A stretch of DNA of 63,879 nt from an uncultured Bacilli bacterium (GTDB lineage Bacteria; Bacillota_I; Bacilli_A; RFN20; CAG-826). The stretch covers positions 1-63,879 of the forward strand of contig CAJOLV010000009.1 of NCBI GenBank assembly GCA_905235515.1. Direction: 5' to 3'. The translations under genes and the position numbers were made by a program. Positions 12,359 to 33,406 of this stretch are shown piece after piece (within the stretch, counting starts at the first letter, position 1; every line of letters starts with the position of its first letter). The notes under the pieces are model-generated. The model saw only the letters and a list, made by a program, of their open reading frames with translations. It did no database searches and was not told where the DNA came from.

Positions 12359-13276
12359 TTAGATGTTATTTAAGAATTCATCAATTTCTTGATTAGATGG
12401 AGCGACATGTATCGCTCCTTTCTTTTGTGTGGCTAATCCGCCAGCGACATTGGCTCTCTTAAGAGCGGTGATGATATTATCATCGTCATTCATATCTAAA
12501 CCTTGATCAACACTATAGAGGAAATAGGAATAGAAAGCATCCCCTGCACCTGTTGTGTCTACTGGTTTAAGTGGATATGAACTAACTTTAATAAATTTAT
12601 CTTTGCTATAGAAGATAGAGCCATCTTTTCCAAGGGTCACTACTGCGATTTGTTTATCATTTAATAATGCTTTTAGACCTTTTAAGACATCTTTTTGATT
12701 AGATAGTAATTCTAATTCTTCTTCAGTGAATTTAATGATATCCGCGCATTTAAGGGATTTTAAGAATATATCTTTGGCTTCTTTTTCACTTTTAAAGATG
12801 TCATCACGATAATTGACATCAAAAGAGATTAAGCAATTGTAATTATTATGAATATACTCAATAGCGGAATAATAGAAATCTCTCCCTTGTTGATACGAGA
12901 GCATTAATGAACCGATATGAACAATGGAGATTTTTGATAAATCAAATTTCTTTAATTGATTGATATCTAATAGATAGTCACTACCGCTGTCTCTTTTAAA
13001 TCTAAATGATCTTTCACCATTATCAAGAGTAACAATTGCTTGAGTAGTTTCTCTACCTTTAATCACATCAATATAAGCATTAGGTAATTTCTTTTTTGCA
13101 AAATCTAATAATAGATGACCATATTCATCTGGTGATACCGCTCCATAGAAGGAGGCTTCACCATTAAAATGGGCAATATTACTTGCTACGTTAAAAGGCG
13201 CTCCACCAGGATAGGCTGTCTTTTTATCACCTTCAATAAATATATCTACTAAGATTTCTCCAACTGATAACACCAT
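12359..13276 (-). CDS. PfkB-family carbohydrate kinase, probable fructokinase
   Basis: PGGAPFNVA, SFDVNYR and VDTTGAGDAF motifs; last gene of the fructan locus. Confidence 0.9.
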   Translation of the reverse strand: MVLSVGEILVDIFIEGDKKTAYPGGAPFNVASNIAHFNGEASFYGAVSPDEYGHLLLDFAKKKLPNAYIDVIKGRETTQAIVTLDNGERSFRFKRDSGSDYLLDINQLKKFDLSKISIVHIGSLMLSYQQGRDFYYSAIEYIHNNYNCLISFDVNYRDDIFKSEKEAKDIFLKSLKCADIIKFTEEELELLSNQKDVLKGLKALLNDKQIAVVTLGKDGSIFYSKDKFIKVSSYPLKPVDTTGAGDAFYSYFLYSVDQGLDMNDDDNIITALKRANVAGGLATQKKGAIHVAPSNQEIDEFLNNI

Positions 13277-13291
13277 AACAACATCTCCAAT

Positions 13292-13316
13292 AAAAAACCG
13301 AGAGTTGGCTCGGTTT
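13292..13316 (-). terminator. Intrinsic terminator between the surface protein and fructokinase genes
   Basis: AAACCGAG/CTCGGTTT hairpin with a T-run on the minus strand. Confidence 0.65.
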
Positions 13317-13333
13317 AATTATATAATTAATTA

Positions 13334-15190
13334 TTAGTTTTGTTTACGTTTTTTAAAGAAGAATAATCCGCATAAACCCACTAATGCGATTGTAGAAATA
13401 ACAACAATGATAAATTCTGCATTATTGCCTGTTCTAGATAGCAATGAGTTAGAGGAATTTCCACTTTCGGTTGGTGTGAGATTATTTTTAGAAATAATGG
13501 CTGGAATAACTGTTCCTAAATTACCTTTCACAACCGCTTTTTCATACCAATTGCCAGAAGCGTCTGTGCCTCTTGTATAATCTTCAGATGCATTAACGAT
13601 AGCTCTTGCATCATTGGTCAACGCTGAATAATCATCACAAAGATCTTGCAATTCATTTGAAGTAAAACCAGAACAATCTAAATATTTAAATGATCCATTA
13701 GCGCGGAAGACACTGTAGTAGTTTTGTAAGAAATCATATGCTTCTTTAAGAGCGGAAGTATCTTCTGCTGGTCCATCATCAAATGCATAGTCAACTCCAC
13801 CAGCACCTTCAACAGCATTAACATAAACATCTTTTAAAACGGGATATGTGGCTGTGCCATTATTTTGGGTAGCAACTTCCACTTTAAATCCTGGTAATTC
13901 AGAATAATTTGCTTTTAATTCATCAAAATAGACAGCATTCCATCCACCAGGTTTATTAGCGACATCAGCAATACCGATTTGGACTAATCTACCCGCATAT
14001 TTTGAGAAATTGACAACGTGTCTTACTAATGTACAAACATTCACTTCACCTGTGGCGACTAAATGATTATCGCCATTAGAAACAAATGTTTTGCAGTCTA
14101 CCCACGCTAAATCATTAGCGCTTTCAAAGTCGATTAAGTGTAATGAAGCAGAATTACCTGCCATTTTAATACTGACGATACCATTTTCTGGTAAACGGAA
14201 TGGTTTAGAAATGAATCTATAGACAGAATCATCGCTAGCGACATAACCAAATTCATGATCGGTATAGTCATCGTTCGCACCACCATACCATCCTTTAAAG
14301 AATCCGTTAGTGTTATTGAATGGTAAATTGAATCCGCCATTACGATATGTGGACTGAGAAATGACTCTATCTTGATGTCTTTCACCAATACTATCGTCTC
14401 CGTAAAGATCTTTGACCCAATTGGCGTTAAATGATTCTTGAGTATCAAAGCTTTCAGCAAAGCCATTTTCATAAACGAAACCATTTCTTAAACTTCCATT
14501 TAAGCGATAATGATTCCTTAATGTAGCAATGCTGGCTTCTTCTGCTTCTCCATTTTGGCAACTAGAATAATATAGCCATTGAGCATCGGAAACTTGTTGA
14601 TGTGTTTGGTTAACGTGTAAATAGCCAAATTCATTCGCACCGTAGTCATTTCCCCTACCATCAACTAAATCGACAGACATATAAAAATCGCCATTCAAAG
14701 CCGCATACTCTTCATCGGAAATAAAGAAGTTTCTTAAAACCAAAGTAGTTTTTGAGAATGTATCATTCCAGAAATCATGAACATATGTTGGTTCTGTAGC
14801 ATCTTCACTAGCCCATAATTTGAAGACTAATTTAACATCTGAACTCTCGCCAACATGGTTATTATTAGCACAGCCGTATTGGAAATAAATCCATTGAGTG
14901 GTTTGACGCCATTTACGTGAATTCAATGTTCCTGTCCAGCCTTCATGGTCTAAACAGCCATCAAAAACTGACCCCAAGGCATTTAAAGTTTTTCCATTCC
15001 AGCAGGTTGCTTCAGTACCTCTAAATGTTCCAGCATCAGCTACCCAGTTAGTAAAGAAGGCTTCATTCATCTCAATAGATGTTTCTGGGTCATCAGCTTT
15101 TGCTTTTTCTACTTGGATTTTAGCAGAGACACTCGCTACTGCGGCAGTTGCTAAAGCAGTTGCGCCAAGCAAAACAAATAATTTTTTCAT
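13334..15190 (-). CDS. Membrane-anchored non-catalytic protein with two divergent CBM38-like (fructan-binding) modules
   Basis: Signal peptide; SKPFRLPENGIVSIKMAG...FSKYAGRLVQIGIADV...FDEL resembles the repeats of 19191-21680; helical stalk, TM and KKRK tail. Confidence 0.6.
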   Translation of the reverse strand: MKKLFVLLGATALATAAVASVSAKIQVEKAKADDPETSIEMNEAFFTNWVADAGTFRGTEATCWNGKTLNALGSVFDGCLDHEGWTGTLNSRKWRQTTQWIYFQYGCANNNHVGESSDVKLVFKLWASEDATEPTYVHDFWNDTFSKTTLVLRNFFISDEEYAALNGDFYMSVDLVDGRGNDYGANEFGYLHVNQTHQQVSDAQWLYYSSCQNGEAEEASIATLRNHYRLNGSLRNGFVYENGFAESFDTQESFNANWVKDLYGDDSIGERHQDRVISQSTYRNGGFNLPFNNTNGFFKGWYGGANDDYTDHEFGYVASDDSVYRFISKPFRLPENGIVSIKMAGNSASLHLIDFESANDLAWVDCKTFVSNGDNHLVATGEVNVCTLVRHVVNFSKYAGRLVQIGIADVANKPGGWNAVYFDELKANYSELPGFKVEVATQNNGTATYPVLKDVYVNAVEGAGGVDYAFDDGPAEDTSALKEAYDFLQNYYSVFRANGSFKYLDCSGFTSNELQDLCDDYSALTNDARAIVNASEDYTRGTDASGNWYEKAVVKGNLGTVIPAIISKNNLTPTESGNSSNSLLSRTGNNAEFIIVVISTIALVGLCGLFFFKKRKQN

Positions 15191-15272
15191 AATAGTATCA
15201 CTCCTTTATAAATTGTTTCAATTATTCCAAACAGCTTGTTTTTATTTTAACACATTATAATGTGTTTAACCT

Positions 15273-17861
15273 TTAATTATTTTTAAATTCTTCATTCTTT
15301 TTGATAACAATTAATAAAACCGTTAATAAAGAGACAGAAGAAATTAAGATACTAGCGGATAAAATTGATCCACCGCAACCTTTCTTTTCTGGTTGTTCTG
15401 GTTCTGGTTCAGGTTGTGGCTCTGGTTCTGGATCAACTGGGTCAATAGGATCGACTGGGTCTACAGGGTCAACAGGTGTTGTTTCGCTGTCTTTCCAACT
15501 AGCCACTAGTGTTAAATCGCTATTAACATCGATGATTTGACCAACTTGATATTGTTCACTACCGATTAACCAGCAATCAAATTCTTGTCCCTCAGGAGCG
15601 ATAAATGTACAAGATGGTAAGGTATAATCACCTTCTACATCAGTAACATCTGCCATTTCACCTGTTCCACCATTAGAGTCAAAACTAATTGTGTAAGAAT
15701 CTTCTATGACTGAAATTTTCTTCCATTTAGCAAATACTTCAGTATCACTGACAATATCTACTTTATCCCCCGCAGCGTATAATTCATTTTTAATAATCCA
15801 ACAATCAAATTCTTTACCTTCGGGTGCAATAAATGTACAAGTAGGTAAAGTGAGTTGTTCTCCTTCATTTACCTCAACATTTTCCATTGTGCCTGCTCCA
15901 CCATTGGAGTTAAAGGTGACTGTGAAAACAGCAATTTTCCATTGCGCAGTAATTGTCACATCCGCTGTAACAGCGATTTTATCACCAGGTTGTTTTATTT
16001 CTTCATCGCTACCGACTTTCCAACCGGCAAACGCTTTACCTTCCGGAGCGGTAAAACCACATTGTGGTAAAGAATATTCTCCTTTAATTGCCACATTAGT
16101 CATAGAACCACTACCACCATTAGAGGCAAAAGTTACTGTGAATGTTTCATATTCATCCACTAATGCACTGAAGGATGTTGATATTTCATTACTTGCGGTA
16201 ACGCCTTTGCGATACCATTCGTTAGAAAATTCTTGATTGTATTGTAAATCAGTAGATTTATTAACGATTTGTTGAGCATCACTATCTAAAGCGAGATATT
16301 CATTCACGATTTGTTGTTTAGTTTCTTCACTTGCTTTAGCGTAGTTAAATTCATTATCTGGTGAACGTAAAGCACTATAGTAATGTTTCAAGAATTTATA
16401 GGCATTATAGATTGGTGTTTCATCAACTGTTGTGACATCTTCCTTTGGAAGTTTATATTTTAAACCATTAGAGTCGTTATCAATATGAGTGCTAGCGATA
16501 TATTGGTCAAAATAATACATATGAGCGACATCTTGTAAACCTTCACCACATTGTTGACTGGTGGTATCGATATCAAATGATGGATATGATTCATAATTAG
16601 TGATTAATTCATCGAAATAGCTAGATGCCCATTGGTCTGAATAAACATCCGCTAAAGCGAGTTGAATAGTTTTACCTAAATATTCACTCAAATTGATATA
16701 ATGTCTGACCATCGTCACAGTGTTAAAGCCTAAATATTGGCTCTTTTCATCACCATTTAAATTAAATGTTCTTAAGTCGGCCCACGCTAAGTCTTCTTGA
16801 GTTTCAGCATCGATAACATGTAAAGAAGCAGATTTACCAGCCATTTTGATACTAACTAGGCCTGTTCCACCTAATACAAATGGACGAGATTTAAATCTAT
16901 AAATAGGATTGTCACTAGCGACATATCCTTGTCCGTTTTCTCTATAACCACGGAAGAAGGAAGAACCAGTTTTATTAAATGGCATCGTACTATAATCCGC
17001 ACCACTACGATATTCATAAATGGATAAAAGTTCATCTGGATAGCGGTCTAAAACTTCAAAATTATCGTAATTAACATCTAGATACCAATGGTTTAAGAAG
17101 TTAGTTTTGCTATCAAAATTCTCATCGATATTAGAAGCAGTCTTTAAAAAGACCTTCTTTAAATCCGCGTTAGCTAAATAATGGCCAAAAATATTCCTTG
17201 GATTATAATCGTTAACTTCTACTAATTGGATGTGGTTGAGATAGTATCTCATCGCATCACCAACTTGTTCTTCTGTTTGGTTAACATGCAAATAACCAAA
17301 ATTATGGAAACCATAATCCGCTCCTGGCCTTTGATCAATTAAATTGATATACATATCAAAACCATTTTCCTGGTCTAATAAAGCATATTGTTCATCAGGA
17401 ATCTTAAAATATCTTAAAAGCATTGGGTTACCACTGAAAGTATCGTTTTCCATTGTGAAAGTATATGAACCACAATGTATTTCTAAAGTTGGTTTATTTT
17501 CTAATCCATTATTTGCGCCACCCCAAGTGAAATAAATATATTGGGTATATTGTGTCCAAGTTTTTAAAGTAAGAGTTCCTTGCCAATCTCCTTTTGTTTC
17601 ACCTCTAAAAAATGTATCTAAAGCATTAAAATGATGATTTTCATCCCAGAATGTCGCATTTTTGTCAGCAAAATCACCAGCGTCATCAGTCCAATTTGTA
17701 AATGCACTAGAGTTCATTTCAATATAAGTAACAGGATCTACTGCTTTTGCTTCTTTGAGATTAGATTTTGCGCTTGAAGCATACCCGATAGCAAGCACAC
17801 CAGCAATTAATGTTAAAGGAATTAATGTCATTTTTTTCATAATTTGTAAACCTACTTTCAT
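15273..17861 (-). CDS. Surface protein: two CBM38-like modules, three Listeria-Bacteroides (InlB B/Flg_new-like) repeats, Pro-rich linker, Cys-Gly C-terminal anchor
   Basis: Paralog of 13334-15190; three (V/I)(T/S)FxSNGGxGxM..LPxCxFxAPEG repeats; PVD/PEP repeats; KKGCGGS-TM-KK. Start may be 17840. Confidence 0.7.
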   Translation of the reverse strand: MKVGLQIMKKMTLIPLTLIAGVLAIGYASSAKSNLKEAKAVDPVTYIEMNSSAFTNWTDDAGDFADKNATFWDENHHFNALDTFFRGETKGDWQGTLTLKTWTQYTQYIYFTWGGANNGLENKPTLEIHCGSYTFTMENDTFSGNPMLLRYFKIPDEQYALLDQENGFDMYINLIDQRPGADYGFHNFGYLHVNQTEEQVGDAMRYYLNHIQLVEVNDYNPRNIFGHYLANADLKKVFLKTASNIDENFDSKTNFLNHWYLDVNYDNFEVLDRYPDELLSIYEYRSGADYSTMPFNKTGSSFFRGYRENGQGYVASDNPIYRFKSRPFVLGGTGLVSIKMAGKSASLHVIDAETQEDLAWADLRTFNLNGDEKSQYLGFNTVTMVRHYINLSEYLGKTIQLALADVYSDQWASSYFDELITNYESYPSFDIDTTSQQCGEGLQDVAHMYYFDQYIASTHIDNDSNGLKYKLPKEDVTTVDETPIYNAYKFLKHYYSALRSPDNEFNYAKASEETKQQIVNEYLALDSDAQQIVNKSTDLQYNQEFSNEWYRKGVTASNEISTSFSALVDEYETFTVTFASNGGSGSMTNVAIKGEYSLPQCGFTAPEGKAFAGWKVGSDEEIKQPGDKIAVTADVTITAQWKIAVFTVTFNSNGGAGTMENVEVNEGEQLTLPTCTFIAPEGKEFDCWIIKNELYAAGDKVDIVSDTEVFAKWKKISVIEDSYTISFDSNGGTGEMADVTDVEGDYTLPSCTFIAPEGQEFDCWLIGSEQYQVGQIIDVNSDLTLVASWKDSETTPVDPVDPVDPIDPVDPEPEPQPEPEPEQPEKKGCGGSILSASILISSVSLLTVLLIVIKKNEEFKNN
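15388..15477 (-). repeat. Low-complexity Pro-rich linker repeats (PVD)n(PE)n
   Basis: TCTGGT-type and 9-nt degenerate tandem repeats encoding PVDPVDPVDPIDPVDPEPEPQPEPEPEQPE. Confidence 0.8.
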
Positions 17862-19186
17862 AAATATTTATATAAGACTACTTTCTTTGCTTTAACCGTT
17901 AAGTCTAATAAGTCATCATCTTCATCTGGATAGATAAGAGAAGTTAAGCTTTTCCCATCTACAAAGATTTCAATAGAGAATTCATCTAAAACTAGATATA
18001 TTTCGTGGCGTTGATTTTTAATATATGGCATTCTTCTAATACCATTTAATGAATCGGAATCAGTCTCATTACCCTTAATCTCTTCCCCAGATAAAGAACG
18101 ATCAAAAACCCATTCATTCCCTCTTAATTTGAAAGAAGTTTGATGTTTTTGACCCTTTCTAATCATTAATAAGAATGATTCTAAATCATCAATTTCTAAT
18201 TTATAAAATCCCACTTTGATATGTTCACAATAATGATTATCAATGATATGTTCTTCCACTTCACCTTTTGGCAAAACAGGAGTTTGATATAAATCATTAT
18301 TTCTAATTTCTAATTTTCTTGGGATTGTTAAGCTACCAGCAAAACCATATTTTTCACTCGGGTTATTTCTATCCCACATATTCATCCAAGCAATTAAGAT
18401 GTCATCGCTTAAAAACACTTGTGGAGCGTAGAAATCAAAGCCATAGTCAAGCATGTCTATTAAATGGGCTTTAAATTTATCGTCTTTAAATTCACCTAAA
18501 CGGTATAAACATGAATGAATGTTATGGTGATTATATCCTTGAAGAGGGTGGAATTGTTCAGAATTAATTAACAATCCTAAATCTTTAATATAATCGACAC
18601 ATTCAATCATTTTTCCTTCACTATCGTTATCTAAAATATAGTCAACATATTCCCAATGGATTAAATCTTTAGATTTATATTTTAAGATATTACCAGTACT
18701 ACCAATTCTTCTCGCGGCGATCAGCATGATAAATTCATCCTCTTCTTGATAGACCATTGGATCACGGAAATCATTAGGAGCGAATTCTTTTGGTAAATTA
18801 TCTTTATCAATTATTAATCCCACTTTTGTGAAATTAATGCCATCTTCACTATAGGCGAGACATTGTTGTTGAATAATCTTTTCATTATCTTCATTATAAA
18901 TGAAGCCTGTATAAATGATATAAAGATGATTATTAAAGATGATTGATGAGCCAGAGAAGCACCCATCTTTATCAAATTCATCACCAGGAGTTAACGCTAT
19001 CGGGAGATGTTCCCAATGTAACAAATCTTCACTAACAACGTGTCCCCAATGCATCGGACCCCACGATAAACCATAAGGATGGTATTGATAAAAGACATGG
19101 TATTTACCTTTAAATTTAATGACACCGTTAGGGTCATTAATCCATCCTTTAGTTGGGCTAATATGATATAAGGGTCTCTTTTCCAT
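17858..19186 (-). CDS. Cytoplasmic GH32 beta-fructofuranosidase / sucrose-6-phosphate hydrolase
   Basis: WINDPNG, WGPMHWGH, FSGS, FRDP, IEC and DFYAPQ motifs; no signal peptide. Confidence 0.92.
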   Translation of the reverse strand: MEKRPLYHISPTKGWINDPNGVIKFKGKYHVFYQYHPYGLSWGPMHWGHVVSEDLLHWEHLPIALTPGDEFDKDGCFSGSSIIFNNHLYIIYTGFIYNEDNEKIIQQQCLAYSEDGINFTKVGLIIDKDNLPKEFAPNDFRDPMVYQEEDEFIMLIAARRIGSTGNILKYKSKDLIHWEYVDYILDNDSEGKMIECVDYIKDLGLLINSEQFHPLQGYNHHNIHSCLYRLGEFKDDKFKAHLIDMLDYGFDFYAPQVFLSDDILIAWMNMWDRNNPSEKYGFAGSLTIPRKLEIRNNDLYQTPVLPKGEVEEHIIDNHYCEHIKVGFYKLEIDDLESFLLMIRKGQKHQTSFKLRGNEWVFDRSLSGEEIKGNETDSDSLNGIRRMPYIKNQRHEIYLVLDEFSIEIFVDGKSLTSLIYPDEDDDLLDLTVKAKKVVLYKYL

Positions 19187-19190
19187 TATT

Positions 19191-21680: not shown

Positions 21681-21681
21681 A

Positions 21682-24255: not shown

Positions 24256-24261
24256 TCCCCC

Positions 24262-26187: not shown

Positions 26188-26189
26188 AT

Positions 26190-27497
26190 TTATTTAATTT
26201 TGTCTAAGTTACTTTGTAAAACGTTAGCTTTGTTATCGACTAATTCCGATAAATTACCAGCTTCTAAGCCAGAGATGACTTGGGAGAAAGCACTGGAGAA
26301 TTGTGGATAACCGACTGTTGTTGGACGAGCGATGCTAGTCTTTTGTAATTGTTGATATAAAACATCTTCTGGAGAATTTGGTTGATAATTTGTTTCTACT
26401 TCTTTATTAGCAGGAATCATACCAGTAGCGTCAGTAATCTTTTTAGAAGCATCTTTAGTGGTCATATATTTTAATAACAAGGCCACTGGTGCTTTATTTT
26501 TTCTACTATTGTTACCAATTGCAAAACTCCAAGAGCCATTCGCAGAGGCACATTTGACATCCTTTGGATATGGTAATAATCCCCAAGAATCACGATTTGG
26601 GAAAGTAGTTGGATATTTATGATCTAATTCTGGAATAGTCCAACCACTAGAGAGATACATACCGACTTTACCAGTGGAGAAATCACCCGCACCAATGCCG
26701 TAACTTGTATATTTAGAAGTCACTAAATCTTTTAAGAATTGGAAACCTCTTTTGCTTTCAGCGCTATTGAAATAGCCTTGGGCTTTTAAACCTGTCCCAT
26801 CAACAAATGAACCACCGCTAGCGTAGATGAATGGATAAAGTAAATATGTCGCTGTTTCGTCTTTTGTGGCGTCCATTCTCATGTCGACTGGTGTACTAAT
26901 ACCAGCGGCTTTTAATTTTTGACAAACATCTTTGAATTGATCGTATGTCCATGGGTTATCAACTGTATAGCCTGAGACATTAATACCCGCATCACTGAAT
27001 ATTTTTTTATTATAATAAAAACCTGCACTACTTTCTTGGATTGGAATGCCATAGACCTTTCCTTGATAAGTATTTAAAGTGTAGTATTTTGCTTTTTCTT
27101 CAGCAGTCAATTCATTTGTGAAATCATAGAGGTAACCAGATTTCGCATAAGATGCACAGTTTGGAGCATCAAAAGTGATGATATCTGGTAAAGTACCATC
27201 AATCATATTGTTGAATAATTCTCTTTCATAAGCGGAATCACCAGCGGTTCTTGCAACAAACGAGGCTGTTACTTTGATGTTTTTACTCGCGTATTCTTGG
27301 TTAAATTCATCAACTAGTTTCTTATAAGCCATACCTTCACTAGTTTTACTATCAACGTGGAAACGAATCTTTAATTTAGCAACTTCACCAGTTGCACTTC
27401 CATCCCATCCTTCATCTCCACCTTCATCTTCGCTTGATCCAGCGCAGGCGGATAATAAGCATAAGATTGGGATAATACCTAATAATAATTTTTTCAT
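26190..27497 (-). CDS. Sugar ABC transporter substrate-binding lipoprotein (fructo-oligosaccharides)
   Basis: Lipobox LSAC; PDIITFDAP, GFYYNKKIF and WTYDQF SBP motifs; start set at the ATG after SD GGAGG. Confidence 0.9.
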   Translation of the reverse strand: MKKLLLGIIPILCLLSACAGSSEDEGGDEGWDGSATGEVAKLKIRFHVDSKTSEGMAYKKLVDEFNQEYASKNIKVTASFVARTAGDSAYERELFNNMIDGTLPDIITFDAPNCASYAKSGYLYDFTNELTAEEKAKYYTLNTYQGKVYGIPIQESSAGFYYNKKIFSDAGINVSGYTVDNPWTYDQFKDVCQKLKAAGISTPVDMRMDATKDETATYLLYPFIYASGGSFVDGTGLKAQGYFNSAESKRGFQFLKDLVTSKYTSYGIGAGDFSTGKVGMYLSSGWTIPELDHKYPTTFPNRDSWGLLPYPKDVKCASANGSWSFAIGNNSRKNKAPVALLLKYMTTKDASKKITDATGMIPANKEVETNYQPNSPEDVLYQQLQKTSIARPTTVGYPQFSSAFSQVISGLEAGNLSELVDNKANVLQSNLDKIK

Positions 27498-27511
27498 GAT
27501 TAACAACCTCC

Positions 27512-28486
27512 TTATTTAGTTGTTTCACCTTTAATAAAGTGACAATCGAATTTATTTAATAGTTCAAAGTTATTTTCTTGATTAATCTTTTTAATGATTA
27601 GTTCAACACACTTTTCCGCCATGAGGTCTAATGGTTGTTCTAATGTAGTGATATGTGTGTGTTTATCAATGGGGAATTCGCCGTCATAAGAGACGATTTG
27701 TAATTCATCTGGGACTTTAATTTTTCTCTCTTGAACTTCTTTATATAAGAGGCTCGCTAATGTACATCCGGAGACAAATACCCCATCAAAACCTTGATAT
27801 TTTTCAAATAATTCTTTAATCAAGCCCTCTTCTTGACCATGGTCGATATTGCGATTAACAACTATTGGTGTGAGTTGATGTTCTTTCATAACATCGAGGT
27901 AAGCCTTCTCTCTGAGAGAGACTTCGCTAGCTTGATTTGGTTTAGTACCTAAGAACGCTACTTTTTTGCAACCTCTTTCCAGCATATATTCCACACCTTG
28001 TTTAGTCGCCTCATAGTTATTTGTGGTGACAATTGGAATATCTTTGCCTAAGTGACGATCAATTGAGACAATCGCTAGATCTTCAAATTCACTTTCTTGA
28101 TGTTCATAGTGAGTGACGAATAACGCTCCATCAGCCTCGTTTTGCATCAATCTTTTTAAGATATCGCGTTCTTTTTCAATACGGTGTTGGCTGGACGCTA
28201 CTAAAAGGGAATATCCTCTTTTATCGGCGGCAAGTTCTAATCCGGCGATTAATTTTGAAAAATATCGATGGTCAATAACTGGGACGATTACCGCGATAAC
28301 ATAAGAACGATTTTGTGATAATCTTTTGCCAGCGACATTTGGCACATAATTTAGCTCTTTAATCGCATCGAGAACTTTTTCTTTAGTTTTTTCACTAATT
28401 TGTGTGGAGTTATTTAAGACGCGCGAAACGGTGCCGATACCGACACCGCATTTCAATGCGACTTCTTTAATTGTTACCGAGCGCAT
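27512..28486 (-). CDS. LacI-family transcriptional regulator
   Basis: TIKEVALKCGVGIGTVSRVLN HTH followed by a periplasmic-binding-type domain. Confidence 0.95.
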   Translation of the reverse strand: MRSVTIKEVALKCGVGIGTVSRVLNNSTQISEKTKEKVLDAIKELNYVPNVAGKRLSQNRSYVIAVIVPVIDHRYFSKLIAGLELAADKRGYSLLVASSQHRIEKERDILKRLMQNEADGALFVTHYEHQESEFEDLAIVSIDRHLGKDIPIVTTNNYEATKQGVEYMLERGCKKVAFLGTKPNQASEVSLREKAYLDVMKEHQLTPIVVNRNIDHGQEEGLIKELFEKYQGFDGVFVSGCTLASLLYKEVQERKIKVPDELQIVSYDGEFPIDKHTHITTLEQPLDLMAEKCVELIIKKINQENNFELLNKFDCHFIKGETTK

Positions 28487-31400
28487 GTTTCTTTTTCCTC
28501 TTAATTAATAAAATTGTTATAACAGTTACTCCAGCAATGAGCACTAATCCCCCACCAATAGCAACAAACAAAATTGGAGTATTATCAACGAAAGTTGTTT
28601 TATCAACTACCACTTCAATCGTATTTTTAACAGTAATATTGAAAGAGACATCATCGTTAAGGACAATTTCATTTTCTCCTTCGTTTAAATATTGTTTAGA
28701 AATAATAAGTGAATAGTCTTTAACCACATAATTAGTGGCTTCTAAGTCTTGGCCATTGACTGTTACTCTAGTAATCTCATTATTTCCGATATAAATAGTC
28801 GCATCATTACCCATATCAATTTCCATATCATCAACGGAGAAATAATGACTAATTGTGGCATCGACTTTAATGACAAATGTATAAGCAGAACCAACAATTC
28901 TAAATTGATAGACACCACTATCTTTTAATAAATCAAAATAGGATTGTTTGATATATAAGTTATTACCAGATTGATAATAATAATCACTATCGATTAAGCG
29001 ATTGCCTAAGGTAACGTTATAGATGGCGCTTACAAATTGATCAACACCTAAATTGACCGCTAGTTCACCAGAAGAATATGTGTAATTCTCTTTAGCGAGA
29101 GATAAAGATTTAAATTGGGCTTTTCCGGAGAAAACATTTAAACCAAAATAGCCAGTAAGTGGTTCATCGTCATGTAACTTATAATTAATAGCGACTACTC
29201 CGTTAGCAATTACTTGAATATCTTTTTCAAGAGCTTTTACTGACAAAACAACATCATGTGAATCTAGGTTAATAACACCACTTCTTGCAAGTTCACCATG
29301 AGTGGACCATAATTTAACAACCTTTTCATTAGCGTCATAATTAGCGACTAAATAACTAGACATGTCACTAGAAGCTCTAAAGACTAATGAGGCTGCTGCT
29401 CCATTCATTAAATCGAATTGGCCAGTATAAGTAAAATCACTACCAGTTTCCGAGGCTAATAAGAAAGCGTTACCAGAAGCTTTTTCACCGATAATAGAAT
29501 TATCCGCCATGACCCATGAACCGGAAATGATATTGTCTTTAACAAATGTTAAATCGGAAGTAAAGTTAGATGAATAGACAATAACATTAATAAATTGTTC
29601 ATGTCCACCAACACTGACTTTAAATCTTGCCGTGCCAGCGTTTTTCGCTGTTAATAAAACTCCTTGATCACTGAATTTATAATTAACGACATCTTCATTA
29701 TCAATGACTTCCCAATTCAAAGATAAATCACCAGAGAAATAGCAAGTCACGAATAGAGAATTGACAAATTGTTTATCTAATTCGACTTCATTAGTGGAAA
29801 CATATAAGATACCTTCTTCAGGTAGGATATTTTTTTGATAAGCGGAGCGAATCTCATTTAATTCTAATTTCTTAATCACTGCGTTATCCGCTTTTAAGGA
29901 CGCACCTGTGGAGAAGATAGAAGCAGTTGTCACAAAATAGAAACTAATAGAGAAATCTTCACAGAACACTTCTAAGCCACCATTATCAGAGAGAACATAG
30001 AATGTCTTGATATCACTATCACCTAAGATATGGGAAGCATATTTAACATGCCAGTCAATATTTGTATTAATACCTTTATCATCTAAATAGGTACGGTCAA
30101 CATAATAACCATCAACGCTATTCCAGCCTAATTGCATGAATTCACCTTCACCAACATCAACTTTAAAGGTAATTGGGCTGTTCTCTTTTGTTTCAATAGT
30201 CGCGTCCATTTCAAAGATATGAGTGTGGACATCTTTTAATGGGTTAACACTATTAGAGGAGAGGTTTTTATTTTCTAAATAAACAATCTCATCTTTTTCT
30301 AAATGAGGATTATTAACTGTGATTGGTTTTTGTGAGAGGCGATATTCGCCACTATCACTCTTAAATACACCATATTCAACAGGTGTGGTAAATCCACCAT
30401 TCCAGCGTCCTCTTAAACCAGCGTATTCACCTGGACCAGTGCAGAAAGAAGCATTTAAATCGCCAGAGAACCAGTTTAAAACGATATCTTTGCCATAATA
30501 ATCACTGCTTGGATCTGTGATATAGAAGCCTTGAGAAGCATAAGAATCTGGGCCAAAATCTAATGGCTTTAATGGGATTGTATCTACTGTATAAGTTGAA
30601 ATATCAACATTATTTTCATCGTAGAATTTGACTGCGCCAGTCATTTCGTTATATTCCAAAGTACCTAAAATATAGGTTCTTGATTTATTAGTTAAATACC
30701 AGTGGTCAACATTATCTTTGTCCGTAAGAACACCAACACCGATACATTCAGGAGTCGGGAGTGGAAATTCTCCAGCGACAGCCCAATCTAATAAATTAGT
30801 GGATCTTAAAAACCATCCTTTATTTAAAGCATAGCTACTTAAAGTCATGCCCCAAACGAGGACTTTGCCACTAGAATCTTTCTTTAACGGAAAGACTTTT
30901 GGGTCTCTCCAGTCAATCTTATGGTCAGTAATACCGGTAATATCTTGTGGAATGCGATGACGTTTTGTCCAAGTTAATCCTTCATCATCACTAGAGATAA
31001 CGACTTGATCTTGACGTCCACCATCTCTAGTAAAGATTGCGATAATACCATTACCACCACCATTTGGGAACCAGTTTAAGGCATCGATTTCCGCAATCAT
31101 CCCATTAGTGTATGTAATTGCACAACCAGACCACATCCAAGCGGTGTCAGGGCCAAATTCTGTCCCTTGGCCTTCTGGGAATAAACAAAGTGGCAAGAAT
31201 TCAAAATGAATTAAATCTTTACTTCTCGCGTGTCCCCAGAACATATCACCCCAATAGAGATTGAATGGATGTGTTTGATAAAACACATGATAATAACCAT
31301 TGTAATAACATAAAGCATTTGGGTCATTTGTCCATTTAGCAAAAGGTTGTAAATGATATTGATTACGATATGGTTCAGAGAAATAGGAATAATCGGAGTG

Positions 31401-32024
31401 ACCGATTTCAATATTAGATAAGTAGACATCAGCGTTAAAACAATTCATACCTAAGTATCCACCTTGATAGGTATAAGTTGTTCCTAAATCATTTAAGTCG
31501 ATGACAGTATCAATGCCAAAACGTTTGATACCTTCAACATAAAATTCAAAATAAGCGTGTTCATCTTCTCTTGTGAGAATTACTTTTAAATTAACATTTT
31601 CGATTGTGTTAACTTTTGATTTAACAAAGTTAGATTCAATTTCAGTCATCTTATCGTTACCGATAAAATAATCTCTTCTTAATTCACTTGGAGTGTAGCC
31701 ACCTTCACCATTAGAGGCAAAATAGATTAATTTGACTTGGTTTTCAATTCTATCCATGTTAACGACATAGTAATGGTCATTATCTTCACTACCAAAGGCT
31801 AAACCACCAGCTTGTCCGCTTCTGAAATGTAAATCAGCAGTGTAAACAAAGCTTTCATCTTTGCCATATTGTTTGTCTAATAAACGGAAAGCATCCTTGT
31901 CGCTATTTAATGAGATATCGTCGTACGCTAAAGCGGATTTAATGTGATTTTTGCTGATAGTAAAACTAGAAAAGGCAAATAAAGAAACTAGGCCAGAGAT
32001 GAGTAATAAATGTCCCTTATTCAT
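28467..32024 (-). CDS. Large secreted, membrane-anchored GH32 fructanase (levanase-like) with accessory beta-sandwich modules
   Basis: Signal peptide; WTNDPNAL, WGHARSKDL, WSGC, WRDPKV and PEC motifs; flanking CBM66/DUF1080-like modules; C-terminal TM plus KRKKK. Confidence 0.85.
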   Translation of the reverse strand: MNKGHLLLISGLVSLFAFSSFTISKNHIKSALAYDDISLNSDKDAFRLLDKQYGKDESFVYTADLHFRSGQAGGLAFGSEDNDHYYVVNMDRIENQVKLIYFASNGEGGYTPSELRRDYFIGNDKMTEIESNFVKSKVNTIENVNLKVILTREDEHAYFEFYVEGIKRFGIDTVIDLNDLGTTYTYQGGYLGMNCFNADVYLSNIEIGHSDYSYFSEPYRNQYHLQPFAKWTNDPNALCYYNGYYHVFYQTHPFNLYWGDMFWGHARSKDLIHFEFLPLCLFPEGQGTEFGPDTAWMWSGCAITYTNGMIAEIDALNWFPNGGGNGIIAIFTRDGGRQDQVVISSDDEGLTWTKRHRIPQDITGITDHKIDWRDPKVFPLKKDSSGKVLVWGMTLSSYALNKGWFLRSTNLLDWAVAGEFPLPTPECIGVGVLTDKDNVDHWYLTNKSRTYILGTLEYNEMTGAVKFYDENNVDISTYTVDTIPLKPLDFGPDSYASQGFYITDPSSDYYGKDIVLNWFSGDLNASFCTGPGEYAGLRGRWNGGFTTPVEYGVFKSDSGEYRLSQKPITVNNPHLEKDEIVYLENKNLSSNSVNPLKDVHTHIFEMDATIETKENSPITFKVDVGEGEFMQLGWNSVDGYYVDRTYLDDKGINTNIDWHVKYASHILGDSDIKTFYVLSDNGGLEVFCEDFSISFYFVTTASIFSTGASLKADNAVIKKLELNEIRSAYQKNILPEEGILYVSTNEVELDKQFVNSLFVTCYFSGDLSLNWEVIDNEDVVNYKFSDQGVLLTAKNAGTARFKVSVGGHEQFINVIVYSSNFTSDLTFVKDNIISGSWVMADNSIIGEKASGNAFLLASETGSDFTYTGQFDLMNGAAASLVFRASSDMSSYLVANYDANEKVVKLWSTHGELARSGVINLDSHDVVLSVKALEKDIQVIANGVVAINYKLHDDEPLTGYFGLNVFSGKAQFKSLSLAKENYTYSSGELAVNLGVDQFVSAIYNVTLGNRLIDSDYYYQSGNNLYIKQSYFDLLKDSGVYQFRIVGSAYTFVIKVDATISHYFSVDDMEIDMGNDATIYIGNNEITRVTVNGQDLEATNYVVKDYSLIISKQYLNEGENEIVLNDDVSFNITVKNTIEVVVDKTTFVDNTPILFVAIGGGLVLIAGVTVITILLIKRKKKHALGNN

Positions 32025-33369
32025 GGTAATTCCTCACTATATTTTCATATTTATAAACTGTTTCACCAGTTTCTTTATCAAATAAGTGAATGTTCTTAGG
32101 TAAGAAACCAATATGGATTTCATCACCTTGCACTAGTGTGGATCTTTCTTGCACACTGATGGAGAATTCCACATCACTATCTTTTAATTTACAAAGAACG
32201 TTTGTGGTATTACCTAAGATTTCTACAAACGTTACAACTGCTTCAACACCACTATCAGAAATAGCGATATGTTCACCTCTAATACCTAAGACTAATGATT
32301 TTATATTTCCATCAATATATTGTTCAAACATTTCATTGAAATCTTTTAATGGATATTCAACTTTTTTACCATTTGGTAATTTAATAGTGACTTCTTTTAC
32401 ACCAGCGGCAAAGTCAACATCAAAGAAATTCATTTGTGGAGTGCCAATAAAGCCAGCGACAAATAGATTTAATGGATTATCATAGATTTCACTTGGAGCG
32501 CCGACTTGTTGAATTAAACCATCTTTCATAACGACAATTCGATCACCCATTGTCATCGCTTCGATTTGGTCGTGAGTGACATAGACAAAAGTTGTCTTCA
32601 CTCTTTCGTGTAATTTGACGATCTCATTACGCATGGAGGCTCTTAATTTAGCGTCTAAGTTAGATAATGGTTCATCTAATAAGAATACTTTAGGGTCTCT
32701 TACTAACGCTCTACCAAGGGCTACTCTTTGTCTTTGACCACCACTCATCTCGTTTGGTTTTCTATCAAGAAGGTGTTTAATATCTAAAACTTCTGCTGCT
32801 CTTTGCACTTTTTCATCAATTTCTTCTTTACTGTAATGCACCAATTTCATCTTTGGTGTGTCACATTTATTCTCTAATTCAGTAATTTTGGCTTTGATTT
32901 CACTAGCTTGTTCAGCAGTTGTCGCTTTTTTTAATTCTTTTTTAAGTTCCTTAATCGCTTCTTCATCTCTTCCATAAACTGGATTGCCTTCTTTATCTAA
33001 GACTGGTTTAGCGATTTTTCTTAATTTCAGACCATACGACATATTTCCATAGCTTGTCATATGAGGATATAAAGCATAATTTTGGAACACCATAGCGATG
33101 TTTCTTTTTGAGGCATCAATGTTATTAGAAAGGATATCATCGATATAAAGTTCACCACCGGATATATCTTCTAATCCCGCAATCATTCTTAAAGTTGTAG
33201 ATTTACCACAGCCAGAAGGACCAACTAAAACGACAAATTCGCCATCTTCGATTTCCAAATTAAAATCTCTAACAGCGAATGGCGAAATGTTTTGTTCTTG
33301 TTCTTTTTTCTTTTCTATTTTGCCACGAGGATAAGCCTTATAGATGTGGCGAAGCGAAATAGATGCCAT
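32017..33369 (-). CDS. Sugar ABC transporter ATP-binding protein (MsmK/MalK type) with internal insertion
   Basis: GPSGCGKST, VFQNYALYPH, MSGGQRQR and LLDEPLSNLD motifs; TOBE-like C-terminus. Confidence 0.95.
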   Translation of the reverse strand: MASISLRHIYKAYPRGKIEKKKEQEQNISPFAVRDFNLEIEDGEFVVLVGPSGCGKSTTLRMIAGLEDISGGELYIDDILSNNIDASKRNIAMVFQNYALYPHMTSYGNMSYGLKLRKIAKPVLDKEGNPVYGRDEEAIKELKKELKKATTAEQASEIKAKITELENKCDTPKMKLVHYSKEEIDEKVQRAAEVLDIKHLLDRKPNEMSGGQRQRVALGRALVRDPKVFLLDEPLSNLDAKLRASMRNEIVKLHERVKTTFVYVTHDQIEAMTMGDRIVVMKDGLIQQVGAPSEIYDNPLNLFVAGFIGTPQMNFFDVDFAAGVKEVTIKLPNGKKVEYPLKDFNEMFEQYIDGNIKSLVLGIRGEHIAISDSGVEAVVTFVEILGNTTNVLCKLKDSDVEFSISVQERSTLVQGDEIHIGFLPKNIHLFDKETGETVYKYENIVRNYHE

Positions 33370-33392
33370 AAAAATTCCTCTTATTATGCTTT

Positions 33393-33406
33393 TGGAAACG
33401 TTTCCA
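33393..33406. promoter_or_regulatory. LacI-family operator / cre-like palindrome upstream of the fructan operon
   Basis: Perfect palindrome TGGAAACGTTTCCA between the minus-strand TTGACT (33435-33440) and the SD of the first gene. Confidence 0.85.

Follow-up and report, generated by a model that had tools for sequence, protein, structure and literature searches.

How might a gut bacterium with no outer membrane, and probably no cell wall, hold fructans at its surface for breakdown and uptake? Fructans, among them inulin, fructo-oligosaccharides (FOS) and those of grasses and cereals, are major prebiotics and forage sugars. Their capture by Gram-positive or wall-less gut bacteria is mainly understood as the work of a secreted or wall-bound GH32 enzyme and an ABC importer. 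The locus described here, part of a window of 63,879 nucleotides (the whole stretch of DNA analysed) from an uncultured Bacilli bacterium, would add to this picture enzyme-free arrays of CBM38-type modules and an enzyme resembling cycloinulo-oligosaccharide fructanotransferase (CFTase), in a cassette near-unchanged across 77 loci. It may thereby offer a testable model for glycan capture at a cell surface with neither outer membrane nor wall.

Operon content and host

In the ORF listing, eleven genes, all on the minus strand, occupy 33369 to 12359, neighbours overlapping or standing apart by no more than 82 nt (Table 1). Searches of Pfam, NCBIfam and PDB sequences identified three GH32 enzymes. 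With them are encoded a LacI-family regulator, an ABC importer, a kinase read as a fructokinase, and three surface proteins that have no catalytic domain. An earlier note on this DNA had described a co-oriented locus of about 21 kb with GH32 enzymes in membrane-anchored, lipoprotein and cytoplasmic locations, and the ORF listing and domain searches bear this out. The cluster contains what defines a Gram-positive polysaccharide utilisation locus, enzymes that degrade polysaccharides together with a carbohydrate transporter and a regulator.

We read the operon as serving the utilisation of a fructan (inulin, levan or graminan), surface binding and uptake included, with a probability of roughly 0.7. 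Fructan chains would be held at the membrane surface by p829, with four modules, and by the transmembrane-anchored p862 and p618, with two modules each on stalks. GH32_857, which combines a LamG domain with the glutamate nucleophile (WMNE) of endo-inulinases and CFTases, would cut the chains internally, and GH32_1185, with its CBM66, would trim their ends. Oligosaccharides would then be imported by the solute-binding lipoprotein, fused permease and MsmK-type ATPase; GH32_442 would free fructose in the cytoplasm and the kinase would phosphorylate it, the whole gene set being regulated by LacI.

The host is probably a small-genome, wall-less Bacilli bacterium of the gut or rumen. Neither a sortase nor a PBP transpeptidase was found in its 92%-complete genome of 1.2 Mb, and the cell is therefore probably without a wall.

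Table 1. Features of the operon, with positions in the window.
Feature	Position	Strand	Description
ABC ATPase	32017..33369	-	MsmK/UgpC/MalK type, 450 aa; NCBIfam PRK11650, 432 bits
GH32_1185	28467..32024	-	surface GH32, 1185 aa; Pfam, PDB matches, motifs
LacI-family regulator	27512..28486	-	324 aa; Pfam LacI and Peripla_BP_3
Solute-binding lipoprotein	26190..27506	-	438 aa, lipobox LLSAC; Pfam SBP_bac_1 and SBP_bac_8
Fused ABC permeases	24262..26187	-	641 aa, MalF/UgpA-like and MalG/UgpE-like; Pfam BPD_transp_1 twice
GH32_857	21682..24255	-	CFTase-core-like lipoprotein, 857 aa, Cys23; Pfam Laminin_G_3 and GH32
p829	19191..21680	-	lipoprotein, 829 aa, lipobox Cys20; solely four CBM38-type modules
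p829 m1	20961-21596	-	self-comparison, module HMM
p829 m2	20397-20960	-	self-comparison, module HMM
p829 m3	19785-20396	-	self-comparison, module HMM
p829 m4	19194-19784	-	self-comparison, module HMM
GH32_442	17858..19186	-	putative cytoplasmic exo-beta-fructofuranosidase, 442 aa, without signal peptide
p862	15273..17861	-	
p862 m1	17142-17747	-	diverged module
p862 m2	16527-17141	-	module
p862 helical region	16062-16526	-	
p618	13334..15190	-	also helical region and C-terminal TM anchor
p618 m1	14486-15085	-	module
p618 m2	13841-14485	-	module
Terminator-like hairpin	13295..13316	-	between p618 and kinase genes; consensus match only
Sugar kinase	12359..13276	-	PfkB family (Pfam PfkB, E 2.5e-43); read as fructokinase

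The three GH32 enzymes

All three GH32 proteins exceed the Pfam cut-off for PF00251 (301, 162 and 139 bits); PF08244 exceeds it in two and was not reported in GH32_1185. GH32_442, which scores 301 bits for the Pfam GH32N domain and 332 bits for TIGR01322, finds its best PDB matches in sucrose-6-P hydrolase and T. maritima beta-fructosidase (7vco, E 4e-77; 1uyp, E 9e-64).

GH32_1185 is probably an exo-fructosidase, as its motifs (WTNDP, RDP, EC) and its match to exo-inulinase 1y4w (E 7e-25 among PDB sequences) suggest. An N-terminal hydrophobic signal is followed by a ConA-like domain, the GH32 domain (224-502), a CBM66 (832-975), an X2/Shr-like Ig domain (about 1065-1122) and a C-terminal transmembrane segment ending in a KRKKK tail. 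Residues 832-975 match the CBM66 of Bacillus subtilis levanase SacC (PDB 4azz, 4b1l and 4b1m; phmmer E 3e-8 to 6e-8), while the score against Pfam PF06439, 22.4 bits, falls under the cut-off of 26.8. As in SacC, the CBM66-like domain follows the catalytic one; unlike SacC, the protein is anchored at its C-terminus and bears the additional ConA-like and Ig-like domains at its N-terminal side.

In GH32_857, LamG occupies about 45-300 after the lipobox cysteine and precedes a GH32 domain with the nucleophile motif WMNE, the arrangement of CFTases (Pfam Laminin_G_3, GH32N and GH32C, with the accompanying motifs). Its WMNE, RDP and WEC motifs align with those of the proteins P0314 and P0353, and WMNE is kept in 68 of 68 orthologues. 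CFTases are by far its closest characterised relatives: residues 38-846 align with 550-1318 of the Niallia (Bacillus) circulans CFTase (BAA24360.1 / O52973, 1503 aa) at 32% identity (E 6e-111, 362 bits), against 102 bits (E 2e-28) for the best solved GH32. At this level of identity, neither reaction nor substrate linkage nor endo versus exo action can be carried over with confidence from the characterised CFTases.

Non-catalytic surface proteins

The modules of p829 lie in tandem, measure about 190 aa each and are 25-46% identical in pairs, so that the lipoprotein is, as previously claimed, built of four such modules and nothing else. Our assignment to CBM38 follows homology to the repeats of the P. 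polymyxa and Niallia circulans CFTases, CBM38 itself having been defined on the P. macerans sequence. According to PMC10076258, CBM38 corresponds to residues 32-389 of that CFTase and comprises two beta-sandwiches. Residues 638-815 of p829 align with 74-243 of the P. polymyxa CFTase (43% identity, E 1.6e-37, BLASTP), and a profile of the modules in the window matches the Niallia circulans CFTase with an i-E of about 3e-52 in its two N-terminal repeats and 1e-22 in the C-terminal one. These matches point to membership of CBM38, a proposal of the earlier note on which its reading had been made to depend. The modules had no match in Pfam or among PDB sequences, where no CBM38 structure was found by sequence. 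An AF2 model of m4 is an all-beta beta-sandwich (pLDDT 96.9) in keeping with the CBM38 fold of about 180 aa, and its top structural neighbours are carbohydrate-binding modules, namely a porphyran-binding CBM (Z 12.9, rmsd 3.2, 134 aligned) and also CBM16, CBM4 and CBM61.

The other two proteins, p862 and p618, are paralogous to each other, with 36% identity along some 600 aa (E 2e-106). p862 consists of a signal peptide, m1, m2, the helical region, three Listeria-Bacteroides (Flg_new) repeats, a Pro/Glu-rich stalk and a C-terminal transmembrane anchor; residues 38-600 are modelled by AF2 as two beta-sandwiches (pLDDT 77.6). Just ahead of the anchor of p618 stands LSRTG (TIGR01167 LPXTG_anchor, 17 bits, E 0.0069). 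An HMM built from the four p829 modules alone detects one module in each protein (i-E 2.2e-18 and, for p618 m2, 5.3e-10), and p862 m2 matches the CFTase CBM38 repeats directly (E 1e-10 to 5e-7). With this HMM the N-terminal copies of p618 and p862 fall short of significance (i-E 0.012 and 0.014), and they were recovered in a family-versus-family comparison (hhalign probability 97.1%, E 7.7e-11, 132 columns); their ligand is for this reason the least certain prediction among the modules. Two further anchored, non-catalytic proteins with two copies each are thus present as had been claimed, one copy apiece being clear and one very diverged, and the "up to eight" modules counted previously become six clear ones and two (m1 of either protein) whose divergence is very large.

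Conservation in other genomes

Synteny was compared across 77 loci from one-genome-per-species records, chosen by similarity to p829 and found in gut or rumen genomes labelled Bacilli, Anaeroplasma, Christensenellaceae, Oscillospiraceae and other Clostridia. They represent one orthologous cassette and not 77 independent observations. A LamG and GH32 gene lies directly upstream of the four-module gene in 67 of the 68 loci with at least 2.7 kb of upstream sequence. Where at least 9.9 kb is available upstream, GH32 with CBM66, solute-binding protein and permeases are always present (44/44) and LacI nearly so (42/44); with at least 6 kb downstream, 47 of 50 loci have the cytoplasmic GH32 and 45 another module protein. 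Co-conservation of the non-catalytic with the GH32 genes, on which the earlier note had also let its reading hang, is therefore supported, and four same-order relatives (G002, G019, G027 and G029) likewise have GH32-linked module genes. The arrangement is common to dozens of uncultured gut species; we found no description of a stand-alone CBM38 array beside a CFTase-type enzyme in the literature searched.

The modules of p618 and p862 are merely 15-25% identical to those of p829, which raises the question of whether they bind fructan at all. Module proteins of the operon, perhaps all of them but chiefly these two, might instead be adhesins for plant particles, mucus or microbes, or binders of other glycans that ride in the operon. 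The Listeria-Bacteroides repeats of p862 are common in adhesin-like surface proteins, and in the relative G022 diverged modules of the same superfamily occur in a mannoside locus, where they are fused to GH125 and accompanied by GH130, no GH32 being detected. Given this fusion and a further GH125 among 46 additional module-bearing representatives (whose only other catalytic Pfam domain is one GDSL), the superfamily is not exclusive to fructans. Against such a role here, homologues of p862 and p618 occur in seven Bacilli-labelled cassettes (L013/L022, L024, L025, L033, L038, L040 and L097), downstream of the cytoplasmic GH32 every time, and the direct match of p862 m2 to CFTase repeats reaches E 1e-10. 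We consider a non-fructan ligand unlikely. Clostridia-labelled cassettes have a different multi-module protein in the p862/p618 region.

A proposed split CFTase

The CFTases of Niallia circulans and Paenibacillus polymyxa (1333 aa) combine CBM38-type repeats, LamG and a WMNE/RDP/EC GH32 in one secreted chain. Here, GH32_857 aligns over the whole LamG and GH32 core, no CBM38 module was found in its chain by the module HMM, and the p829 modules, encoded by the next gene, align full-length with the repeats. As far as homology can tell, GH32_857 and p829 divide between them the set of domains that Bacillus and Paenibacillus CFTases have in one chain, and the cassette would be a natural split version of an industrial enzyme. 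Of the best 150 module-bearing cluster representatives, 17 also match GH32, and 16 of those the LamG query; one (P0216) reads LamG-GH32-three modules, in the order of the two genes here. Unlike those of the CFTases, the blocks lie on two lipoproteins, and they occur in an anaerobic gut bacterium whose locus also encodes an importer and a cytoplasmic GH32.

Whether the two lipoproteins still associate was approached by modelling p829 module 1 with GH32_857, a check that had been suggested for this gene pair. In the single model, which supports binding but does not demonstrate it, module 1 sits on the LamG domain with a score of 0.67, against 0.00 for the best of three controls. Of 80 solved complexes 58 attain the mark applied to such scores, as do 2 of 110 mismatched pairs; own alignments having been used, the mark is only roughly valid here. 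At least 94% of contacts are shared between runs, and the partner's pLDDT is at least 86. The LamG interface is near-invariant in 60 split-type orthologues (Y198 59/60, P200 60/60, Y233 59/60, E234 60/60), and its residues differ in seven fused proteins. With the end-to-end core alignment and the fused proteins of the same order, the model lends support to the split-CFTase claim of the earlier note. Continued association through module 1 and LamG is given slightly less than an even chance; the predicted contact could account for the assembly of such multi-protein systems.

A reading that we hold somewhat short of even odds is that the enzyme works apart from the module proteins, with p829, p862 and p618 as free-standing glycan binders for which their anchors suffice, with no complex between p829 and GH32_857. 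Each of these two lipoproteins has its own lipobox, and the docking comes from one model in which the module 1 residues concerned (A157, N209 and the 152-158 strand) sit in motifs common to all modules, so that any specificity for module 1 is tentative. The score beyond all controls, an interface near-invariant in the split lineage only, and the adjoining genes in almost every locus argue against independent action.

GH32_857 might also be a true cyclising CFTase which, with the CBM38 array, makes cyclofructans from inulin at the surface, to be imported by the ABC system and so kept from competitors. Its kinship with CFTases, the shared LamG and GH32 layout, the WMNE motif and the CBM38 modules next door all favour this. 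The identity of about 32% is, however, low when named CFTases and their Paenibacillus kin share about 60% among themselves. Exo-acting GH32 beta-fructofuranosidases require a free chain end, and the sole cytoplasmic GH32 resembles these, so that the locus has no obvious ring-opener; the whole genome has four GH32 genes only. Moreover, PMC6042768 links the Glu of WMNEPNG to endo-inulinase activity, the WMNE glutamate being equally typical of hydrolytic endo-inulinases. We regard cyclisation as improbable, hydrolysis being the more likely chemistry. More improbable still is the combined proposal of a non-covalent, lipid-anchored CFTase holoenzyme of GH32_857 and p829 that cyclises inulin at the surface for ABC import of cyclofructans unusable by competitors; if true, dozens of uncultured gut Firmicutes and wall-less Bacilli would share a route for fructans analogous to that for cyclodextrins.

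Comparison with other fructan systems

In sequence, length (about 180-190 aa), beta-sandwich fold and tandem arrangement (PMC10076258), the modules resemble CBM38 from the CFTase of Paenibacillus macerans, an inulin-binding module once called X39; they differ in forming stand-alone arrays of four, two and two with no catalytic domain in the chain, and their fructan binding is a prediction from homology.

At the level of whole loci, the levan utilisome of Bacteroides thetaiotaomicron reportedly comprises SusC/D and two lipoproteins, one a surface glycan binder and the other a GH32 endo-levanase. Our operon is similar in placing a lipid-anchored, enzyme-free putative binder and an endo-type GH32 lipoprotein beside a transporter, with intracellular breakdown thereafter, and dissimilar in its lack of an outer membrane and of SusC/SusD, its ABC transport and its unrelated binding modules. 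Pfam scans of ten operon proteins (the eleventh is the ABC ATPase) revealed no SusC or SusD domain. The operon may thus be likened to a Sus-type utilisome as an analogue, not a member. The functional analogy in the earlier note's "Gram-positive" Sus-type system is supported, its "selfish" mode of uptake and the co-expression of the genes being predictions, but the adjective "Gram-positive" needs a qualifier, the cell being probably wall-less.

Gram-positive FOS and inulin loci, as in lactobacilli, bifidobacteria and Roseburia, combine GH32, an ABC transporter and LacI, and the present operon follows the same logic of regulator, solute-binding protein, permeases, ATPase and intracellular GH32. 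We know of no such locus with dedicated enzyme-free CBM38 surface proteins or a CFTase-type LamG-GH32.

Importer and kinase genes

The closest PDB relatives of the solute-binding lipoprotein are oligosaccharide-binding proteins. The permeases form one ORF (UgpA at 46-325 and UgpE at 373-634 in NCBIfam) as against two separate genes in related loci, and a homologue of the sugar kinase is also present in related loci of G019, G027 and G029. The ATPase gene overlaps that of GH32_1185 by 8 nt, and an insertion of about 65 aa separates the two stretches of its product that match PRK11650.

Operon layout and gene content

Eleven co-oriented minus-strand genes run from 33369 to 12359 with gaps or overlaps of at most 82 nt in the ORF listing, and were identified through domain searches and PDB sequence searches.

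Genes of the putative fructan operon, in transcription order
Gene	Coordinates	Strand	Features
MsmK-type ABC ATPase	32017-33369	-	First gene
GH32_1185	28467-32024	-	Signal peptide, GH32 domain, CBM66 at residues 832-975, C-terminal TM anchor
LacI regulator		-	Third gene; domain search
Solute-binding lipoprotein		-	Fourth gene; domain search
641-aa ORF	24262-26187	-	Two permease domains; domain search
GH32_857	21682-24255	-	Lipoprotein, LamG + GH32
p829	19191-21680	-	Lipoprotein, no Pfam domain, four tandem modules
GH32_442	17858-19186	-	Signal peptide absent; nearest PDB relatives are a sucrose-6-P hydrolase and the T. maritima beta-fructosidase
p862	15273-17861	-	Signal peptide, C-terminal TM anchor; p618 paralogue
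p618	13334-15190	-	Signal peptide, C-terminal TM anchor; p862 paralogue
PfkB kinase	12359-13276	-	Last gene

The earlier note placed the three GH32 enzymes in different compartments, and this is borne out by their predicted signals and anchors: a TM anchor, a lipobox and a missing signal peptide, respectively. The CBM66 of GH32_1185 matched PDB 4azz (E 3e-8), GH32_442 had 7vco as its best sucrose-6-P hydrolase match (E 4e-77), and p862 and p618 share 36% identity (E 2e-106). Promoter-like sites were no commoner than in shuffles (94 vs 89.6 ± 9.1), and no convincing LacI operator palindrome was found upstream of the first operon gene.

Several features of the transport and flanking genes were also noted. 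An insertion of ~65 aa (residues ~108-173) separates two UgpC/MalK-matching stretches of the ATPase; the ATPases of the loci in the related genomes G019 and G027 exceed it in length, at 654 and 620 aa, and likewise match in two stretches. The permeases form a single ORF here versus two adjacent genes in related loci (327 and 309 aa in G002), reflecting either a real fusion or a stop codon lost in assembly. Divergent from the operon start lies a GH2-family gene (33598-35919, +; 773 aa) whose top NCBIfam match, beta-galactosidase GalA, scored 185 bits, far under its cut-off.

Non-catalytic modules and CBM38

The four tandem modules of p829 (m1-m4) are each ~190 aa long and 25-46% identical to one another. 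An HMM built solely from them detected a single module in each of p862 and p618 (i-E 2.2e-18 and 5.3e-10, respectively), with non-significant values for the N-terminal halves of these proteins (0.012 and 0.014). An alignment of those N-terminal regions, comprising p862, p618 and seven ORF hits from related loci, matched an alignment of p829 and CFTase (cycloinulo-oligosaccharide fructanotransferase) modules over 132 columns (hhalign 97.1%, E 7.7e-11), and in the AF2 model for residues 38-600 of p862, based on only nine sequences (pLDDT 77.6), a helical region comes after two beta-sandwiches. Of the up to eight modules originally proposed, six are therefore clear and two very diverged.

Searches of Pfam, NCBIfam and PDB sequences returned no match to the modules beyond a short NGxFE start (CBM_4_9 or NTTRR-F1), and the ESM Atlas returned unnamed clusters only, with a weak DUF4980 lead (0.89). 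For p829 m4, an AF2 model based on 148 aligned sequences confidently predicts a beta-sandwich (pLDDT 96.9) whose top structural neighbours are CBMs: a porphyran-binding CBM (Z 12.9, rmsd 3.2, 134 aligned), followed by CBM16, CBM4 and CBM61; Foldseek TM-scores reached 0.54 at most. Across 60 p829 orthologues, identity to the window is 62% for m1 and 61% for m2 but drops to 48% for m3 and 44% for m4; m1 carries a conserved insertion (~residues 125-146) absent from the other modules.

A profile of the six window modules, searched against 1.84 billion cluster representatives, matched 1249 proteins at E ≤ 1e-3, of which 288 reached E ≤ 1e-30. A GH32 match was present in 17 of the 150 best module-bearing representatives, 16 of which also matched the LamG query. 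One such module and GH32 protein, P0138, retrieved as a query two proteins named CFTase by their sources, P0314 (Niallia circulans BAA24360.1 / O52973, 1503 aa) and P0353 (P. polymyxa, 1333 aa). The proposed match to CBM38 held: p829 residues 638-815 share 43% identity with residues 74-243 of P0353 (E 1.6e-37), and in P0314 the window profile found both N-terminal repeats (i-E ~3e-52) and the C-terminal one (1e-22). The second module of p862 matched the P0314 repeats at E 1e-10 to 5e-7. Modules and CFTase repeats, the latter reportedly named R1-R4 by Kim and Choi in 2001, align over their full length, with the motifs NxxFExGDLxGW, WW, TGxLxSxxFxLGG and VDN...WG...D in common. In the P. macerans CFTase, residues 32-389 have been described as CBM38 (formerly X39), two beta-sandwich domains binding levan and inulin with low micromolar affinity (PMC10076258). 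The P0353 repeats (67-256 and 250-397) occupy the matching position, judged for P. macerans by the published residue range only.

Modules of this kind are also found beside other enzymes. In G022, a same-family relative, they form one 869-aa polypeptide with a GH125 alpha-mannosidase, encoded in a locus (L016, G022:C15:10000-29127) where GH130 genes, DUF1861, an SBP and permeases adjoin and GH32 was not detected. A further 46 module-bearing representatives included one with GH125 and one with a GDSL domain, the others having Ig-like spacers or nothing. Because of these GH125-linked modules, the superfamily is, on sequence grounds, one with non-fructan members that also serves a mannoside locus. 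As a predicted ligand, fructan is best supported for p829 and least for the diverged copies.

A CFTase-like architecture divided between two proteins

In the known CFTases, two to three modules precede LamG-GH32 and one follows, whereas in the window LamG-GH32 and the modules reside on separate proteins. The whole LamG+GH32 core of the N. circulans CFTase (residues 550-1318) is matched by GH32_857 over residues 38-846 (32% identity, E 6e-111); the E-value for the best solved GH32 is 2e-28. The WMNE nucleophile motif is present in GH32_857, both named CFTases and all 68 of 68 LamG+GH32 orthologues, and the RDP and E-C motifs of GH32_857 and the named CFTases are likewise aligned. Moreover, the fused protein P0216 (Paenibacillus spp., 1342 aa) reads LamG-GH32-3 modules, the order of the GH32_857 and p829 genes. 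By virtue of the core alignment, shared motifs and fused order, the earlier reading of a CFTase architecture split over adjacent lipoproteins is well founded.

The Glu of WMNEPNG has been tied to fungal endo-inulinase activity (PMC6042768). At 32% identity, however, the reaction of GH32_857, be it hydrolysis or cyclising transfer, cannot be deduced from the CFTases. Cyclisation is possible but less likely, since the cytoplasmic GH32_442 resembles exo-enzymes and only four GH32 genes were found in the genome. The fourth lies on another contig (G000:C8:25245-26042, -; open frame 480 aa).

Modelled contact of GH32_857 with p829

The pairing of GH32_857 with p829, raised in the earlier note, was modelled using residues 45-832 of the enzyme and residues 29-240 of p829 (m1 only), with a 60-row alignment for each. 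The complex scored 0.67 versus 0.00 for the best of three controls; the score mark, reached by 58/80 solved complexes and 2/110 mismatched pairs, is only roughly valid here given the custom alignments. Contact agreement among runs was at least 94% and partner pLDDT at least 86. The model supports rather than demonstrates binding of GH32_857 to m1, with a predicted contact between LamG residues 195-200, 222-237 and 286-289 and m1 residues 139-141, 149, 152-158 and 209.

In 60 split-type orthologues, whose LamG domains average 54% identity to the window, the LamG contact residues are nearly invariant (Y198 59/60, P200 60/60, Y222 57/60, Y233 59/60, E234 60/60, P287 57/60). Those of m1 fall in motifs common to all modules. 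An interface that is a mere memory of fused enzymes was considered and rejected, as the LamG contact positions differ in seven fused proteins (W, N/K/T, A, S and others).

Cell envelope and proposed mechanism

Sortase (PF04203) and PBP transpeptidase (PF00905) had no match in the 1.2-Mb, 92%-complete genome, and both were matched in the named control genomes. Close relatives are labelled as rumen Bacilli, Erysipelotrichaceae or Anaeroplasma, and the cell is probably wall-less, in keeping with a Mollicutes-like Bacilli lineage; surface display via lipoboxes and TM anchors would fit such a cell. An LSRTG precedes the p618 anchor (13334-13430, -; LPXTG_anchor 17 vs a 15.9-bit cut-off, E 0.0069), although no sortase was found; it could be either the remnant of a sorting signal or a coincidental match.

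We propose that CBM38 arrays would hold fructan at the membrane, where GH32_857, possibly docked to p829, may cut it internally and GH32_1185 may trim chain ends with its CBM66. The ABC system would take up the oligosaccharides, GH32_442 and the kinase would complete their breakdown, and LacI would regulate the operon.

Conservation of the cassette

A p829 scan of one-genome-per-species records recovered 77 loci (42-75% identity; two in one MAG) which, being picked by p829 similarity, represent one orthologous cassette rather than independent trials. Depositors labelled 11 as Bacilli/Erysipelotrichaceae/Anaeroplasma, 65 as Clostridia-type (Christensenella(ceae), Oscillospiraceae, Eubacteriales and others) and one as 'Akkermansia'. 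Gene content was counted through ORF calling and searches with the window's own domains. The expected co-conservation of non-catalytic and GH32 genes was observed: among the 68 loci with 2.7 kb or more of upstream sequence, 67 have a LamG+GH32 gene immediately upstream of the module gene, the single exception (L057) having LamG+GH32 as two ORFs (725 and 100 aa). The remaining loci comprise eight with too little upstream sequence and one without a called module ORF. Where at least 9.9 kb upstream was available, GH32+CBM66, SBP and permeases were present in 44/44 loci and LacI in 42/44; where at least 6 kb downstream was available, cytoplasmic GH32 was present in 47/50 and an additional module protein in 45/50.

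Homologues of p862 and p618 were found only in Bacilli-labelled cassettes; in Clostridia-labelled ones, different proteins with 2-5 modules are encoded. Modules were matched in 7/41 genomes (the window genome and 40 relatives), with GH32-linked loci in the relatives G002, G019, G027 and G029, and in 17/300 genomes of a class sample at E ≤ 1e-20. The modules, enzyme family and locus logic are already known; stand-alone CBM38 surface arrays, their separation from the CFTase-type core and the conserved cassette were not found described in the literature searched.

Loci L014, L017, L018 and L021 (G019, G027 and G029; same order) encode an extra lipoprotein of 682-695 aa with one module fused to the N-terminal side of a GH32; this form is absent from the window genome, which has GH32_1185 with CBM66 instead. 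Locus L043 places a whole Firmicutes-type cassette (p829 53% identity) on a contig binned as Akkermansia muciniphila, a label which is probably a binning error.
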